From: Candidatus Krumholzibacteriia bacterium
GTDB taxonomy: Bacteria > Krumholzibacteriota > Krumholzibacteriia > WVZY01
Reading direction: 5' to 3'
NCBI GenBank assembly: GCA_036478295.1
Contig: JAZGDW010000233.1
Location: 1 to 19,531 of the forward strand
DNA length: 19,531 nt
Numbering within the stretch: the stretch's first letter is position 1; every line of letters begins with the position of its first letter. Positions 9,001 to 12,000 of this stretch are shown piece by piece. A program made the position numbers.

Positions 9001-12000
9001 TGCTCTCTGGCGGTAAAGCGACCGGTGGACTCTATGACGATGTCCGCACCCAACTCTTTCCATGGGAGTCTCGCAGGATCGGTCTCGGACAGTACTTCCA
9101 GCTTCGTGTCCCCGACCTTGATGGCGCTACCGGCAACAGAGACCTCGGCCGGGAACCGGCCGTGAACGGAATCGTATTTTAGCAGGTGCGCGAGAATCTC
9201 CGGTTCGGTCAGGTCGTTTACCGCGACGAACTCCAGGTCTGCGTCCCGGAAGCCGTGCCGGAAAACCAGCCTCCCAATCCGGCCAAAGCCGTTGATTGCC
9301 ACTTTGATTGCCATCACTTCCTCCTGCACAGAGAACCGAACGCCCGGCTACTCAAAAAAGACGGCTCCCAACACTCGAGCTTTCAGGTCGATCGTTGTCC
9401 TTCCCGGAATTCACAAAATTCGGCCGCGGTCCGAGCCAAATCAGTCAAAAAAACCGTGGCCCGGCCGAGCCAACGCGAGGGGGTGCGCCGACCACCAACT
9501 CTATGATAGCCGGGGTCCGTCAGGTGTGTCAAGTCAAAGCGCTACAAAGCCCTAGCAAAGCAGAGCACTTCAAGAGAAATCGCCCCCGCCGCGAAAATAG
9601 CGCAGGCGCAGGCGGCCGCCGTCGCACCAGTGGTCACAAGATCGTCGACGAGGAGCACCCGCTTTCCGGCCAGACCTGACCCGGCGCAGGCAAAGGCCCC
9701 ACGGACGTTCGCCGCCCTCGCGGCGTGAGGCGTTCGAGATTGCCGCGCCGTTCGCTTTACCCTTTTTAGCACATTTCTAATCAAAGGGATATCGAGTTCG
9801 TGCTGGAGGTGCCTTGCGATATCCTCGGGTAGATTTATGCCGTGCCGTCCAACCCGCGTCACGGGCACGGGAACGAGCACCGTCGTCGAATCGGACCCGT
9901 GACCGAGGCGGCGGTACGCGTCCTCAAGTGTTTCCGCAACTGGCTGCGCCAGACCCCAGTACCGATCGAACTTGATCAAGTGGACTATTTTCAACGGGTT
10001 ATCACTGGTCATCGGGACTGTGTACTTGTCGCAATCCCAATGAAATCAATGCAATAGGCGGGATTCTGGCGTAATTACTTCTTACGCTTGGGCTTCCGCT
10101 TCTTTTGGGGCTTCTCTGGCCAGCCTTCCTTCGGACGCTCTTTCTTGAGAGCTTTGTCGACAGCGTCCTGCCAATCACCGTCAATATTGACGTGTTCCGG
10201 CTGTCTGCCACGCTTTTTGGGTTTTTCTTTGTTCATCAGCATACTTGTTGACAGAAGTGCTGAGATGATTTAGATTTCCTTACGTCGAAGCCCAAGGAGC
10301 GATAGAGACATGATTAAGCTACGAGTCCCCTGGAACCAATCGCATATCGAAGGCGAATTCGACAATGTTGTCGAAGCCGCTGAATTTATTCGTGCTCTTG
10401 CTAACGGTACCGCTGCACCGTCCAATTCTCAAATGGCATTCGACTTAGGAGAAATTGAAGGGTCCACAGTTGGATTATCGTGGTCAGACGACGATATGTC
10501 CAGGCAAATGTCTTTCTTGCAGGGAGTCGCGAAAGCCAAGAAGGGCATTCTCACTAGAGATTTGGCAAAAGCGTTAGGCATGTCAGACGCTAGGGGTATC
10601 GGTGGGATCATGGCTGGGCTTGGCCGCAGGTTGAATAAATTGGATCTCAAACCAACGTCTGTGGTTAGGAAAAGAAAAACCAAAGCGGGCTTGAAGTATT
10701 CCCCCGGCCCCGAGATTCTTAAGGCGATTAAGCTTTTGGAAATGGCAGAAATTCTGGAGGAAGTGGGCGAGGAACACGGAAAAAAAGGCAGCCCGCCGTA
10801 AGCAAGCTGCCTTTCAGGAGATTGCGGGCGTGGCGAAAATGGCAAACGCACTCGCTTTGGAAGCGAGCGCGGATTTTTCCGCATCCGGGTTCGAGCCCCG
10901 GCGTCCGCAAAATATGTCCAACCCGAAAGGATGGTGGTTACCTTGAGAGTTTGACCAAGCCCTTCGAGGGTGACGGGGCCGGAGGAAACCCGGCCCCATA
11001 TACTGCTTATAAGCGCTTATAAGCACTGTGTCAAGAACTAATCTATTATCCTGCTTTGAGTTAAATCGCCCATGCTCTTGTAACCGTATCGGGTGAAACT
11101 ATTTGCCAACTATTTTAATTTTTTACTTGACGCAAACATCCTATTGTGTTATAGTTAAGACATGAAAAAGAAGAAAAATAGTAAGGTAGCGGGTGACAAA
11201 TGTAAGGTAATTGCAGAAATACCAATAGCTTGCCAAGATGAGCAGGCAGCCGTGGAGTTCCTGGAAAAGCACCGGTGGAGCGATGATCCATGCTGTCCCC
11301 GGTGTGGGAGCGTGTCGGTCTACCAGATGGTCAGTCGCACGACTGGCAGGCGAAACGCCCGGTATCTCTGGATGTGCCGAGACTGCAAACGCCAGTATAC
11401 GGTTAGAATCGGCACCGTCTTCGAGGATAGCCGTATCCCGCTCAAACACTGGTGCTATGCCTTTTGGGCCGCGTGTGCGTCTAAGAAGGGCGTGAGTGCC
11501 CTTCAGATTAAGCGTATGACGGGGCTCTCGTATAAGAGCGCCCTTTTCATGATGCACCGTATCCGCTACGCCATGGCAGACGATCCCAAGACACCACGCA
11601 AGCTAACCGGGGTCGTGGAATGCGATGAGACTTACGTTGGTGGTCGCCCGCGCTACCCCAAGAAAGGTATGGGCAAGTCTTTGGATTGGATGGACAGGAA
11701 AACGCCGGTGCTGGCCATGGTGGAGCGTGGTGGTAATGCCAGGGCCATGGCAATTCCGAACGTCAAAGGTGTAACACTGTGGACGCACCTAAGGCGCCAC
11801 ATAGATCAGGAAGCAACGCTAATGACCGATGAGCTGCACGCCTACAAGCGCATCGGGAAGCCATTCAAGAAGCACTACCGGATAAAACACGGTCTGGGCC
11901 AGTACGTCAAAGGGGACGTTCATACTAACACGGTTGAGGGATTTTTCAGCCTGCTAAAGCGCGGAATTATCGGCACGTTTCACAGTGTATCCAAGAAACA

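Follow-up and report, generated by a model that had tools for sequence, protein, structure and literature searches.

A tRNA gene within an IS1595-family transposon

The window (the whole stretch of DNA analysed, 19,531 nucleotides) contains an IS1595-family transposon of 2,728 bp at positions 10013-12740. Its ends are inverted and flanked by a target duplication of 8 bp, and a tRNA gene lies between them. Three codon positions of the transposase gene, called sentinel sites below, are included in the list of features.

10005-10012: left copy of the target-site duplication, CTGGTCAT, overlapping the ATG of a ComF-like phosphoribosyltransferase gene, 9542-10012(-)
10013-10034, + strand: left terminal inverted repeat (CGGGACTGTGTACTTGTCGC...); 7 related elements, and more, have homologous CGGAAGTATGTACTTG ends
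10075-10242, - strand: small basic ORF of 55 aa near one end, kept in 7/7 elements with CGGAAGTATG-type ends (BLASTP, alignment)
10248-10276, + strand: sigma-70-like promoter match TTGACA-17-TAGATT, a consensus match only, upstream of the ORF 10310-10801 and of the tRNA
10310-10801, + strand: orphan cargo ORF of 163 aa, stopping 22 nt before the tRNA
10824-10909, + strand: class II leucine-type tRNA with anticodon UGG, 86 nt, intact (ARAGORN and Rfam)
10975-10997, + strand: GC-rich hairpin GGGGCCGG-AGGAAAC-CCGGCCCC, downstream of the tRNA, seen in the sequence
11162-12130, + strand: intact IS1595-family transposase of 322 aa (Pfam, NCBIfam)
11222-11224, + strand: sentinel site 1, CCA, codon 21 of the transposase, mid-helix in the N-terminal helix 15-25 of the structural model
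11594-11596, + strand: linker sentinel, CCA, codon 145, in the inter-domain linker (coil 139-150 of the model)
12119-12121, + strand: sentinel site 2 position, codon 320, CAG here, 3 codons ahead of the stop
12151-12699, - strand: orphan cargo ORF of 182 aa (gene prediction)
12719-12740, - strand: right terminal inverted repeat, reverse complement GGGAAGTATGTACTTGATGC...
12741-12748: right copy of the target-site duplication CTGGTCAT, matching the left copy

The empty site, with one copy of CTGGTCAT, is present in the same-genus genome G206. The inverted ends of the window copy are imperfect (14/20). An initial annotation of this DNA had described a low-GC islet in which the tRNA lies next to a transposase. 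The GC content is indeed low (0.43-0.56, against about 0.6), but the whole islet is one transposon and the tRNA lies within it.

The transposase carries a DDE_Tnp_IS1595 domain (1.6e-41) and an N-terminal Zn_ribbon_IS1595 (1.6e-10) in Pfam, and it scores 198 bits with NF033547 of NCBIfam, for a cut-off of 75. Its AlphaFold2 model has a mean pLDDT of 87.5. No Pfam or NCBIfam family was found above cut-off for the 55-aa ORF, nor any for the two cargo ORFs, which also had no BLAST homologues in 7 other bounded elements. Gene calls and Pfam gave no synthetase gene in the element. The scan that yielded the putative promoter found 4 consensus sites where 2.3 were expected, and the hairpin was not called a terminator by the scan because it is not accompanied by a T tract. 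No RNA run was listed as containing this stretch. In three DNA runs from one study, which contain small shares of it, contigs matched parts of 9541-9774 and 12153-12759, leaving the tRNA unspanned. A 420-nt contig from these runs matches only 10823-10864 and diverges beyond, so that it represents a relative and not the tRNA gene of the window.

Identity features of the tRNA

ARAGORN predicts a tRNA-Pro(tgg) at 10823-10910(+), and the Rfam model RF00005 matches 10824-10909 over its positions 1-71 of 71 with 53.7 bits (gathering score 29 bits) and an E-value of 3e-09; the bit score is the one given by the initial annotation, whose E-value of 1e-9 was not recovered. The intact 86-nt class II tRNA with a UGG anticodon that it had described is thereby confirmed, and our family model R1 gives it 83.2 bits. 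The acceptor stem is GCGGGCG/CGTCCGC, with a G1-C72 pair and one G-U pair. It is followed by U8 and G9, a 3-bp D stem (GCG/CGC) closing the D loop AAAATGGCAAA, an anticodon stem CTCGC/GCGAG with the loop TT-TGG-AA, including U33 and A37, a variable region of 17 nt that includes the 5-bp stem GCGGA-TTTT-TCCGC, the T arm CCGGG-TTCGAGC-CCCGG, and the discriminator A73 at 10909. As had been noted before, CCA is not encoded, and AAATATG follows directly.

The body of the molecule is of leucine type, with A73, A14 and U8, the A15-U48 pair, G18G19 and the 3-bp D stem, while its anticodon TGG lies outside the leucine set NAG/YAA; the earlier description of a leucine-type body with a proline anticodon therefore stands. 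According to the available text of one source, leucine identity in E. coli relies on A73 and proline identity on G35, G36, A73, G72 and G15-C48, and the anticodon is dispensable for leucylation (PMC9976931). Among the ProRS determinants, the window tRNA has G35, G36 and A73, by which charging by ProRS would be conceivable, but G72 (in C1-G72), G15-C48 and the class I architecture are missing. Since the leucine-type features are present and the proline determinants G72 and G15-C48 are not, charging by LeuRS is the best prediction. The acceptor and T stems are of the canonical 7 and 5 bp, not in the 8/4 or 9/3 arrangement of allo-tRNAs.

ARAGORN counts 40 tRNAs in the assembly, not 41 as reported before. 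Besides the window gene, the proline tRNAs are two class I Pro(ggg) of 75 and 78 nt, with no other Pro(tgg), as already stated, and no Pro(cgg), in a set that is incomplete because the Ile, Trp and Cys tRNAs are missing from it. The nearest host tRNA is Leu(tag), as had been proposed, at 68% identity instead of 69%, followed by Leu(taa) at 67% and Ser(tga) and Leu(gag) at 66%.

Related elements carry the same kind of tRNA

A BLAST search with the tRNA in the 207 other genomes of the phylum gave a 32-nt partial match as its sole match, in agreement with the full-length match previously reported as lacking there. This method is too insensitive, and pattern, transposase-based and covariance searches were therefore used instead. 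The initial annotation had found no relatives, whereas searches aware of structure and context found many; L230, from a Krumholzibacteriia genome, is one of them.

Related transposases occur in many phyla with the same kind of tRNA inside the element ends. In 8/8 of the first loci that have a full transposase, inverted ends flanked by a duplication enclose the tRNA. When a strict requirement for ends and duplication was applied to 32 further loci, 18 showed both; one of these, L225, was dropped because its ends (14/20 matches, with a 7-bp duplication) are probably spurious. At the remaining 17 bounded loci, the tRNA was inside in 17/17 and an element-type tRNA was found outside in 0/17. The 14/32 loci without strict ends, many of them interrupted by contig ends, were counted neither for nor against. 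Transposase relatives were also gathered irrespective of any anticodon. Of 395 in genome_contigs, the best 80 included 33 with an element-type tRNA-like gene, which had an NGG proline anticodon in 30/33; the metagenome set comprised the best 80 of about 380 relatives, and further tRNA-bearing elements came from metagenome and viral contigs. The position and orientation of the tRNA relative to the transposase vary among elements. In sister elements, the leucine-type body is reused with AGA and GGA (Ser), UUA (stop) and UGC (Ala) anticodons.

In an alignment of 23 class II UGG tRNAs, 99.8% of 460 cloverleaf cells were paired and 17/20 pairs showed two-sided changes, a level of covariation reached by 0/500 shuffles, in a test that is partly circular because the input sequences were chosen by programs requiring a cloverleaf. 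U8, A14, A15, G18, G19 and U48 (the last being T61 in the numbering of the first sequence) were invariant in 23/23, and A73 was present in 22/23. Over the wider set of class II matches, A73 was present in 59/62 and CCA was encoded in 15/62. There is also a second type of UGG tRNA, of class I size, with U73, no G18G19 and an odd T loop, which co-occurs with CCA sites.

A close relative of the window tRNA is the only tRNA of a complete 44-kb phage (L213), for which no IS1595 transposase was detected in the 18.4 kb examined. The inverted-end motif was found neither around this copy nor around a Bacteroidales copy (L223), and some class II tRNA(UGG) thus lie outside recognisable IS1595 elements.

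These data bear on the suggestion that the window gene is a lone, decaying or phage-derived tRNA. A neutral hitch-hiker, whether a pseudogene derived by mutation from tRNA-Leu or tRNA-Ser or a gene whose anticodon was misassembled, would fit a single copy in one incomplete MAG, the missing CCA, the imperfect inverted ends, the loss of site 2, and DNA-run contigs that match the window without spanning the tRNA. It would not, however, account for a perfect cloverleaf at 53.7 bits, for an identity of only 65-68% to the host's own tRNA-Leu, or for dozens of diverged homologues that share the anticodon and show compensatory changes. We consider this explanation highly improbable: dozens of related elements, like this one, have the tRNA as a conserved internal component.

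Sentinel codons co-vary with the anticodon

We compared codon use in 33 transposase genes of the main clade (mean pairwise identity 56%) over 53 conserved columns with four-fold degeneracy. A single codon was used throughout in 2/53 columns, and in both it was CCA, at site 1 in 33/33 genes and at site 2 in the 25/25 genes with Pro there, whereas the next highest single-codon share was 76% and the median 48%. These two sites were also the sole columns of the 53 whose commonest codon ends in A. In five other conserved Pro columns, CCA filled 4/115 cells. The linker CCA is present in 37/45 class II UGG elements; in the window transposase, the neighbouring Pro142 is encoded by CCC. Sentinel site 2 is lost in the window copy, since codon 320 is CAG and not CCA.

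The sentinel codons change together with the anticodon. Elements with an AGG anticodon have CCT at site 1, the linker and site 2 in 3/3. In the AGA element (L246) and in those with GGA (L335 and L327), TCT occupies the linker site and site 2; tRNA-less relatives use TCA, TCC or TCG there. In 4/4 UUA elements the frame stops (TAA or TAG) exactly at site 2, and their tRNA-less sisters extend 2-6 codons beyond it. On the tree, these switches are several separate events, although few in number: one AGG lineage, one or two Ser lineages and three UUA tips. Exceptions were noted: L263 (UGC anticodon) has no clear GCA sentinel, L362/L363 retain CCA at site 2 although a tRNA was not found, L297 (UGG) shares a CCT at site 2 with its tRNA-less sisters, and site 2 is lost in the window copy itself.

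Few or none of the sentinel CCA codons survive in intact tRNA-less derivatives within tRNA-bearing clades (for example L236 and L251, with ends of 20/20; L245; L231/L352, at two insertion sites). Wherever a sentinel codon is lost, with or without the tRNA, the replacements at site 2 are CAG or CAA (window, L225, L238, L311, L313), AAA or AGC, and those at site 1 are CCG or CGG. Lost sentinel codons were never replaced by a leucine codon, and tRNA-less relatives usually have proline at the linker site and site 2, encoded by CCG, CCT or CCC. Leucine is thus not evidently required at these positions. The idea of a private code, in which Pro codons of the transposase would stand at conserved Leu positions, was discarded, the conserved Pro columns being Pro in tRNA-less relatives as well.

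The same observations may suggest a simple dedicated decoder, in which a ProRS-charged tRNA would read CCA codons that are rare in the host, so that transposase synthesis would depend on the tRNA with no change of amino acid. The prolines of tRNA-less relatives, the lack of leucine codons among the replacements and the proline determinants in the anticodon and at position 73 all agree with it. So does the rarity of CCA in the host, where it represents 9.8% of Pro codons. The other sentinel codons are rare there too, with CCT at 7.4% of Pro codons and TCT at 5.6% of Ser codons, and this rarity also speaks for the reading that we favour. Nevertheless, G72 and G15-C48 are missing and the leucine set A73, A15-U48, G18G19 and A14 is one that we call invariant; ProRS could not explain the same body with Ser, stop and Ala anticodons; efficient decoding would be pointless for a stop codon at site 2; and it is unexplained why an element would not simply have captured a host tRNA-Pro gene. 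We therefore regard the dedicated decoder as unlikely, and favour a tRNA charged with leucine and directed to the transposase mRNA.

A leucine-charged tRNA could also act proteome-wide. The transposon would then carry a general mistranslation cargo that inserts Leu at Pro codons, for stress or diversity generation or as a missense suppressor. This is what a leucine-type body with a proline anticodon might lead one to expect, an expressed copy would also read the host CCA codons (4.8 per 1000), and the 44-kb phage carries a close tRNA relative, while the 18.4 kb examined showed no IS1595 transposase. According to the available text of a study in yeast, an engineered tRNA-Leu(UGG) mistranslates and is toxic (PMC11028032). 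Such a cargo would leave unexplained, however, why the cognate codon is frozen at two aligned sites and the linker CCA is kept, and why the codon changes along with the anticodon; moreover, if the cargo harmed prolines, selection would be expected to remove CCA from the genes of the element itself, not to favour it. We find this rather improbable. Of the initial proposal that Leu is inserted at Pro codons, charging by LeuRS remains the best prediction, whereas the main target seems to be the transposase mRNA rather than the host proteome at large, because the anticodon co-varies with codons of its own transposase.

Two other modes of action were considered and set aside. Frameshift control does not apply, the transposase frames being uninterrupted. 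Antisense pairing by the anticodon arm was rejected after a search inside 8 elements, where the longest complementarity was 6-8 nt, against a shuffled-arm mean of 7.2-7.9; because complementarity elsewhere is no longer than in shuffled controls, triplet decoding is the only match. The same result weighs on the idea of a tRNA-shaped cofactor, processing signal or base-pairing regulator that does not decode at all. The class I-size variant, without G18G19 and with an odd T loop, would suit such an RNA, and in the available text of PMC5389517 many allo-tRNAs near transposon-related genes or toxin-antitoxin loci are suggested to be unused in translation. Yet the co-variation is confined to one triplet, the position and orientation of the tRNA relative to the transposase are variable, the features for aminoacylation are conserved and CCA is encoded in 15/62 copies, all of which make a non-translational role quite improbable, a little more so than a general cargo.

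Discussion

We favour, with a confidence slightly better than even, the view that the tRNA(UGG) is a working, leucine-charged and conserved part of the transposon, targeting the sentinel codons of its own transposase mRNA in a dose-dependent control. Host LeuRS, being blind to the anticodon, would most likely leucylate the element tRNA. The selected targets would be the sentinels of the transposase mRNA in the N-terminal helix, the inter-domain linker and the last few codons before the stop, where the element tRNA, once expressed, may compete on the ribosome with the host decoder, that is, tRNA-Pro, or a release factor for the UUA variants. The outcome would be a transposase that is leucine-substituted or read through, and its output or quality would therefore depend on the dose of the element tRNA. 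As to the direction of this control, we lean to restraint, much as in multicopy inhibition, rather than to activation. It is tempting to extend the proposal to a widespread IS1595 group whose leucine-charged tRNA, with a changeable anticodon (UGG, AGG, AGA, GGA or UUA), would be addressed to two or three sentinel codons of the transposase mRNA; competition with the host decoder would set how much of the transposase is leucine-substituted or read through, and this fraction would serve as a copy-number-dependent brake or switch on transposition; we put this forward tentatively, as somewhat less than an even chance.

Siguier, Gagnevin and Chandler reportedly described, in 2009, cargo-carrying IS1595-family insertion sequences under the name 'transporter IS'. 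The present elements share with these the DDE_Tnp_IS1595 domain and N-terminal zinc ribbon, the short inverted repeats, the 8-bp duplication and the presence of passenger genes, but here a tRNA is the conserved passenger, and frozen codons of the transposase gene match its anticodon. In the full-text literature, subscription papers and supplements aside, we found neither a tRNA passenger or tRNA-based control in the IS1595 family nor any account of a bacterial leucine-type tRNA(UGG). Bacteriophage suppressor tRNAs recode stop codons, and they too are tRNAs of mobile elements that alter the reading of the element's own genes, the UUA variants being the nearest parallel. In contrast to phage recoding, the carrier here is an insertion sequence of 1.8-3.5 kb, and mostly sense codons are concerned, at two or three fixed sites of one gene. 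In Streptomyces, the chromosomal tRNA-Leu(UAA) bldA reads rare TTA codons, found at a few positions in regulatory genes, and inserts the correct amino acid. As with bldA, the host is GC-rich and a rare A/T-ending codon at few positions is tied to one tRNA; here the target codon CCA is rare in the host and occupies two or three fixed sites of the transposase gene. Unlike bldA, the body and anticodon of the element tRNA disagree, and the tRNA and its target travel on one transposon.

Insertion sequences are known to limit themselves, by programmed frameshifting in IS1 and IS3 and by antisense multicopy inhibition in IS10. The proposed likeness is that the share of active transposase would be set, in step with copy number, by a device at the level of translation or by an RNA acting in trans; the difference is that the device would be a tRNA acting by missense or read-through, neither a frameshift site nor antisense pairing having been found. 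The Streptomyces tRNA-ProX/ProA mistranslators combine a proline-type body and a non-proline anticodon with a dedicated ProRS. The window tRNA is opposite in polarity, with a leucine body and a proline anticodon, and its element has no synthetase gene. A further study is said to have engineered a mistranslating tRNA with a UGG anticodon in yeast. Engineered tRNA-Leu and tRNA-Ser(UGG) resemble the window tRNA in their class II body, in a synthetase that ignores the anticodon and in Pro codons being read as another amino acid. Where details are available, such class II tRNA(UGG) are mistranslating yeast laboratory constructs and are toxic (PMC11028032), whereas the window tRNA occurs naturally in a bacterium, is mobile and shows co-adaptation to specific codons. 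A natural comparison is with the allo-tRNAs and irregular tRNAs of soil bacteria, which sometimes have transposon-related genes and toxin-antitoxin loci as neighbours (Mukai et al., NAR 2017, PMC5389517). According to the available text of that paper, these also have an anticodon unfit for their identity and a synthetase that ignores it, and are sometimes near transposon genes, but the allo-tRNAs have an 8/4 or 9/3 geometry and serine identity, against 7/5 and leucine type here, and no link to the codons of neighbouring genes is reported in that text. Neither a bacterial leucine-type tRNA(UGG) nor an IS1595-borne tRNA is described in the available text of PMC5389517 and PMC11415595.

If this proposal is correct, insertion sequences own an unsuspected control device, a private tRNA with address codons, which would represent a new class of transposition control. 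To our knowledge, no tRNA from a bacterial mobile element has been reported before to carry out natural, programmed recoding of sense codons. For genetic-code engineering, which seeks orthogonal Leu-type tRNAs with any anticodon, the element would be a compact and portable case from nature in which chosen sense codons are recoded. An old question, how much deliberate mistranslation cells put up with and put to use, would also become testable. On the side of annotation, many MAGs now have such genes labelled as tRNA-Pro, tRNA-Ser or suppressors, labels that can mislead the inference of tRNA sets and genetic codes. Finally, the elements occur in many phyla and a UUA-type variant (L295) is present in a cultured strain, a Cypionkella isolate, so that experiments are feasible.

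A class II tRNA gene with a proline anticodon

ARAGORN called two tRNA genes in the window, one of them tRNA-Pro(tgg) at 10823-10910(+), and the Rfam tRNA model matched 10824-10909 over its full length (53.7 bits, E 3e-09; gathering score 29). The gene reads as follows.

Parts of the tRNA(UGG), from the sequence
Acceptor stem: 7 bp, G1-C72, one G-U pair; then U8 and G9
D stem: 3 bp, loop AAAATGGCAAA
Anticodon stem: 5 bp; 7-nt loop TT-TGG-AA (U33, A37)
Variable region: 17 nt, with a 5-bp stem GCGGA/TCCGC within
T stem: 5 bp, loop TTCGAGC; discriminator A73

CCA is not encoded. 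ARAGORN, Rfam and direct reading of the sequence uphold in all essentials the class II tRNA with a UGG anticodon proposed in the initial annotation. Its statement that the assembly holds no second tRNA-Pro(UGG) was borne out by ARAGORN, which found 40 tRNAs in the whole assembly, including two class I tRNA-Pro(ggg), and no Pro(cgg) nor any Ile, Trp or Cys tRNA. Because these last three are also missing, the missing canonical tRNA-Pro(UGG) is uninformative. The closest tRNAs within the genome are leucine tRNAs (65-68% identity). A 95-nt ARAGORN call on another contig of the MAG, 'tRNA-Thr(ggt)' at C13:2600-2694(-), is very GC-rich, not tRNA-like in appearance and probably false.

The tRNA lies inside an IS1595-family transposon

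The low-GC islet had been described as lying next to a transposase; its ends, the target duplication and an empty site in a related genome show that it is itself one IS1595-family transposon, with the tRNA inside it together with the transposase. The inverted ends of the element (10013-12740, 2,728 bp) are imperfect (CGGGACTGTGTACTTG... and GGGAAGTATGTACTTG...), and the 8-bp direct repeat CTGGTCAT flanks it at 10005-10012 and 12741-12748. G206, a genome of the same genus, keeps synteny on either side but is about 2.8 kb shorter there, and the window flanks, when joined, give uninterrupted G206 sequence with the target present once. The element occurs once in the MAG.

Protein-coding genes inside the element
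10075-10242, minus strand: small basic ORF
10310-10801, plus strand: orphan ORF
11162-12130, plus strand: intact IS1595-family transposase (Pfam 1.6e-41; NF033547 198 bits)
12151-12699, minus strand: second orphan ORF

The element entered a ComF-like phosphoribosyltransferase gene, 9542-10012(-), exactly at its start codon; since the duplication repeats ATGACCAG, this gene retains its ATG, separated by 2.7 kb from its former upstream region. The ORF at 10075-10242(-) encodes 55 lysine/arginine-rich residues with the core motif PGP...LK.xG-DW..A.KKA...P.EGWP and has no family match. It is kept near one inverted end in 7/7 elements with CGGAAGTATG-type ends, and a minimal element of 1.9 kb contains only the transposase, the tRNA and an ORF of this type. 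The stretch that separates tRNA and transposase gene holds a perfect 22-nt palindrome (TGCTTATAAGC/GCTTATAAGCA, 11004-11025) and, at 11127-11155, a sigma-70-like site (TTGACG-17-TATAGT, TG upstream); together the two may be operator and promoter of the transposase. Small contigs from the marine-sediment sequencing runs X1 and X2 are 95-99% identical to the cargo ORF at 12151-12699 (stretch 12153-12759) and diverge at 12153 into other sequence, so this cargo gene also exists in another context.

Related elements carry related tRNAs

The tRNA had been reported to have no relatives, a claim refuted by pattern, transposase and covariance searches. A degenerate pattern, the leucine-type D arm followed by the UGG anticodon loop, hit 5 loci in viral contigs and 79 in a set of one genome per species, with a class II tRNA(UGG) in 2 and 10 of them, respectively. 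An IS1595 transposase, 42-61% identical to that of the window (tblastn), lies at most 1.3 kb from 8 of these 12 tRNAs; none was found near those of L013, L053 and L078, and L054 is a contig of 2.5 kb. In the window and 7 loci with a full transposase, inverted ends and a 7-8-bp duplication enclose both transposase and tRNA. The ends are homologous (CGGAAGTATGTACTTG...) except in L220, which has another end type.

As the pattern had required UGG, a second search started from the transposase alone, tRNAs being detected by ARAGORN and by R1, a covariance model built from 23 element tRNAs. Among the best 80 of 395 transposase relatives in genome_contigs, 33 have an element-type tRNA-like gene.

tRNA-like genes in the 33 loci
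Class II, UGG: 19
AGG anticodon: 1
UGG, variable arm shortened: 1
Degenerate: 2
Second, class I-size type, UGG: 7
Leucine-type bodies with AGA, UGC or UUA: 3

The best 80 of 380 relatives in metagenome contigs, and 20 viral contigs, added further cases, including GGA, AGG and three more UUA. A strict test for ends plus exact duplication gave a result in 18 of 32 further loci, many of the other 14 being cut by a contig end; the ends of L225 (14/20 matches, 7-bp duplication) were dropped as probably spurious. The tRNA lies within the ends in 17/17 retained loci, and an element-type tRNA lies outside them in 0/17. Ends are 20/20 identical in several elements, and L249 and L328 are near-identical elements at different targets, so that the group is mobile now or was recently. 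Decay or assembly error, as an explanation of the window gene, is contradicted by the existence of the tRNA family and has next to no probability. One tRNA-less relative (L245, element 2884-5781) sits 14 nt downstream of a host tRNA-Glu(ttc), 2798-2869.

The element RNA is of leucine type

In an alignment of 23 element tRNAs, 99.8% of 460 cells are paired and 17/20 pairs show changes on both sides, in a covariation test that is partly circular, the sequences having been selected by programs that require a cloverleaf. This result was reached by 0/500 shuffles, and slid registers pair at 37-47%. The fold is kept among members despite almost wholly different acceptor and anticodon stems. U8, A14, A15, G18, G19 and U48 (the last variable base) are invariant, and A73 is found in 22/23 aligned tRNAs and 59/62 class II matches, of which 15 encode CCA. 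According to the review by Giegé and Eriani (PMC9976931), leucine identity in E. coli comprises A73, A15-U48, G18G19, A20a and A14 and is independent of the anticodon and the long arm, and proline identity comprises G72, G35, G36, A73 and G15-C48. By these rules, the family carries the full leucine set and only half of the proline set. Against the family model, the host tRNA-Leu(GAG) scores 76 bits, inside the members' own range, versus about 50 bits for a tRNA-Ser. Judged by its sequence, the element RNA is kept by selection as a tRNA and specifically as one of leucine type.

One leucine-type body is used with five or more anticodons, which fits a synthetase blind to the anticodon and suggests that the codon is no more than an address. 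A dedicated decoder charged with proline would share half of the proline set; G72 and G15-C48 are missing, and the identical body is used with Ser and stop anticodons, so we regard this reading as unlikely.

Frozen codons in the transposase gene

Proline codons of the class II elements have an A-ending share of 0.34, versus 0.09-0.22 in other four-codon boxes. We compared 33 transposases of the main clade, whose pairwise identity averages 56% (lowest 45%), at 53 columns with a conserved four-fold-degenerate residue. Only two columns use a single codon throughout, CCA in both: site 1 is window codon 21 (33/33), and site 2, at window codon 320, lies 0-22 codons ahead of the stop (25/25 genes with proline there). 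The runner-up column stands at 76%, against a median of 48%; sites 1 and 2 alone have an A-ending commonest codon, CCA fills 4/115 cells at five other conserved proline columns, and the codons adjoining the sites vary freely. The inter-domain linker carries CCA in 37/45 class II UGG elements, the remaining linker prolines being CCG, CCC or CCT. In the host, CCA and CCT make up 9.8% and 7.4% of proline codons and TCT 5.6% of serine codons. A 'private code', with proline codons where relatives keep a conserved leucine, failed when tested: the conserved proline columns are proline in tRNA-less relatives as well.

These fixed codons, cognate to the element's own tRNA (sentinel codons), sit in the element's own transposase gene. 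A tRNA carried as general mistranslation cargo would leave them unexplained, and we consider it quite unlikely. Site 2 is lost in seven UGG elements, the window's, where it is CAG, included. In the window copy the tRNA, transposase and duplication are all intact; its ends (14/20 matches) are the least alike among the elements compared, and its two orphan cargo genes have no counterpart in other bounded elements. The copy seems to be an older and perhaps less active representative of its group.

The codons follow the anticodon

Elements with anticodon AGG (L249, L328, L329) have CCT at site 1, linker and site 2, and in L249 these are three of only four CCT codons. Their UGG sisters L330 and L333 have CCT, CCT and CCA, in the same order. 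TCT stands in the linker and at site 2 of L246 (AGA) and of L335 and L327 (GGA), versus TCA, TCC or TCG in tRNA-less relatives. In the UUA elements (4/4) the transposase frame stops exactly at site 2, with TAA (L295, L382) or TAG (L389, L392), and in their tRNA-less sisters it is 2-6 codons longer. The anticodon-switch cases fall in separate places on the transposase tree, as do further gains (e.g. L258, L220, L356 and the L320/L253 group). Intact tRNA-less elements nested among tRNA bearers have lost most or all CCA codons (L236 and L251, ends 20/20; L245; L231/L352, two insertion sites). Exceptions are L263 (UGC), where a GCA sentinel is not evident, L362/L363, which keep the site 2 CCA and in which a tRNA was not found, and L297 (UGG), whose site 2 is CCT as in its tRNA-less sisters. 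Complementarity to the anticodon arm did not exceed that of shuffled arms; no longer pairing being present, triplet decoding on the ribosome is the sole relation that fits. A non-decoding RNA role would leave the co-variation of triplets unexplained and is very unlikely.

Related IS1595 elements contain a second type of tRNA-like gene, of class I size (71-77 nt, anticodon UGG), at L252, L255, L257, L260, L261, L264, L281, L323, L345, L350, L353, L354, L357, L361 and L364, mostly Verrucomicrobiota records. Position 73 is U in 13/14 aligned sequences (C in L323), the D loop lacks GG (G18G19) and the T loop is GTCCRAT in 12/14; with 99.3% of cells paired and 11/21 pairs compensatory (n=14), the type is, on this evidence, a real folded RNA. 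The accompanying transposases keep CCA at four places; CCA stands in the linker in 17/19 and at site 2, one column earlier, in 17/18.

A possible control of transposition

The analysis shows the tRNA itself, where it sits in the element, that it is conserved and that codon and anticodon are coupled. As the likeliest mechanism, we propose that an expressed, leucine-charged tRNA reads the sentinel codons in competition with host tRNA-Pro; in the UUA variants, competition would instead be with release factors. Harm to host proteins would be limited by the rarity of sentinel codons in a GC-rich host. The window transposase was modelled with AlphaFold2 on a 38-sequence alignment (mean pLDDT 87.5); in this model codon 21 falls midway along helix 15-25, codon 145 in a coil that separates the N-terminal region from the catalytic domain, and codon 320 in a disordered tail.

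Three points speak for the tRNA as a brake on transposition. First, derivatives that have no tRNA and carry proline (CCG) or arginine at site 1 remain intact and mobile, which implies that standard reading yields an active enzyme. Second, leucine codons are never the replacement at lost sentinels. Third, tRNA-less tips are scattered in tRNA-bearing clades, as expected if the restraint is easily lost and the loss short-lived. A single observation favours an activator instead: in other subfamilies site 1 is Met, Ile or Ala, and at this mid-helix position of the model leucine would be a better fit than proline. The bolder reading would be a new class of transposition control.

IS1595 elements with cargo, phage suppressor tRNAs and, as a comparison, the bldA/TTA system are known. 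The finding belongs with two known kinds, tRNAs of mobile elements that change how the element's own codons are read and insertion sequences that carry cargo. Full-text searches, which did not extend to subscription journals or supplements, turned up neither a bacterial leucine-type tRNA(UGG), nor a tRNA on IS1595 elements, nor any tRNA linked to codons of a transposase. Anticodon-mismatched tRNAs are known as allo-tRNAs (PMC5389517), and an engineered tRNA-Leu(UGG) strongly inhibits growth in yeast (PMC11028032).

Other unusual tRNAs

The second tRNA-like gene of L220 (5468-5537(+), 70-72 nt; Arg(cct) by ARAGORN, a weak 29 bits with the family model) lies 30 nt after the tRNA(UGG) within the same 2,051-bp element. 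At L266:3466-3552(-), on a Myxococcota chromosome and 449 nt upstream of an IS1595 transposase, a serine-type body (acceptor GGAGAGG, D arm GTGGCCGAGCGG, G73, CCA encoded) bears the leucine anticodon CAA and may be another mismatched tRNA. A 44-kb phage (L013/L213, viral contig G208, rated 100% complete) has as its sole tRNA a class II tRNA(UGG), 40695-40779, close to identical with that of the window in its 5' half and anticodon stem; neither an IS1595 transposase nor an IS-type inverted end was detected in the 18.4 kb examined. Finally, 60 phage tRNAs with the window's D-arm motif (viral loci L097-L176) are mostly Leu (taa 33, caa 9, tag 5); others have odd anticodon calls (gtt six times, tta, tat, ata, aaa), in some cases on unusual loops, so that phage leucine-type bodies with non-leucine anticodons are not rare.
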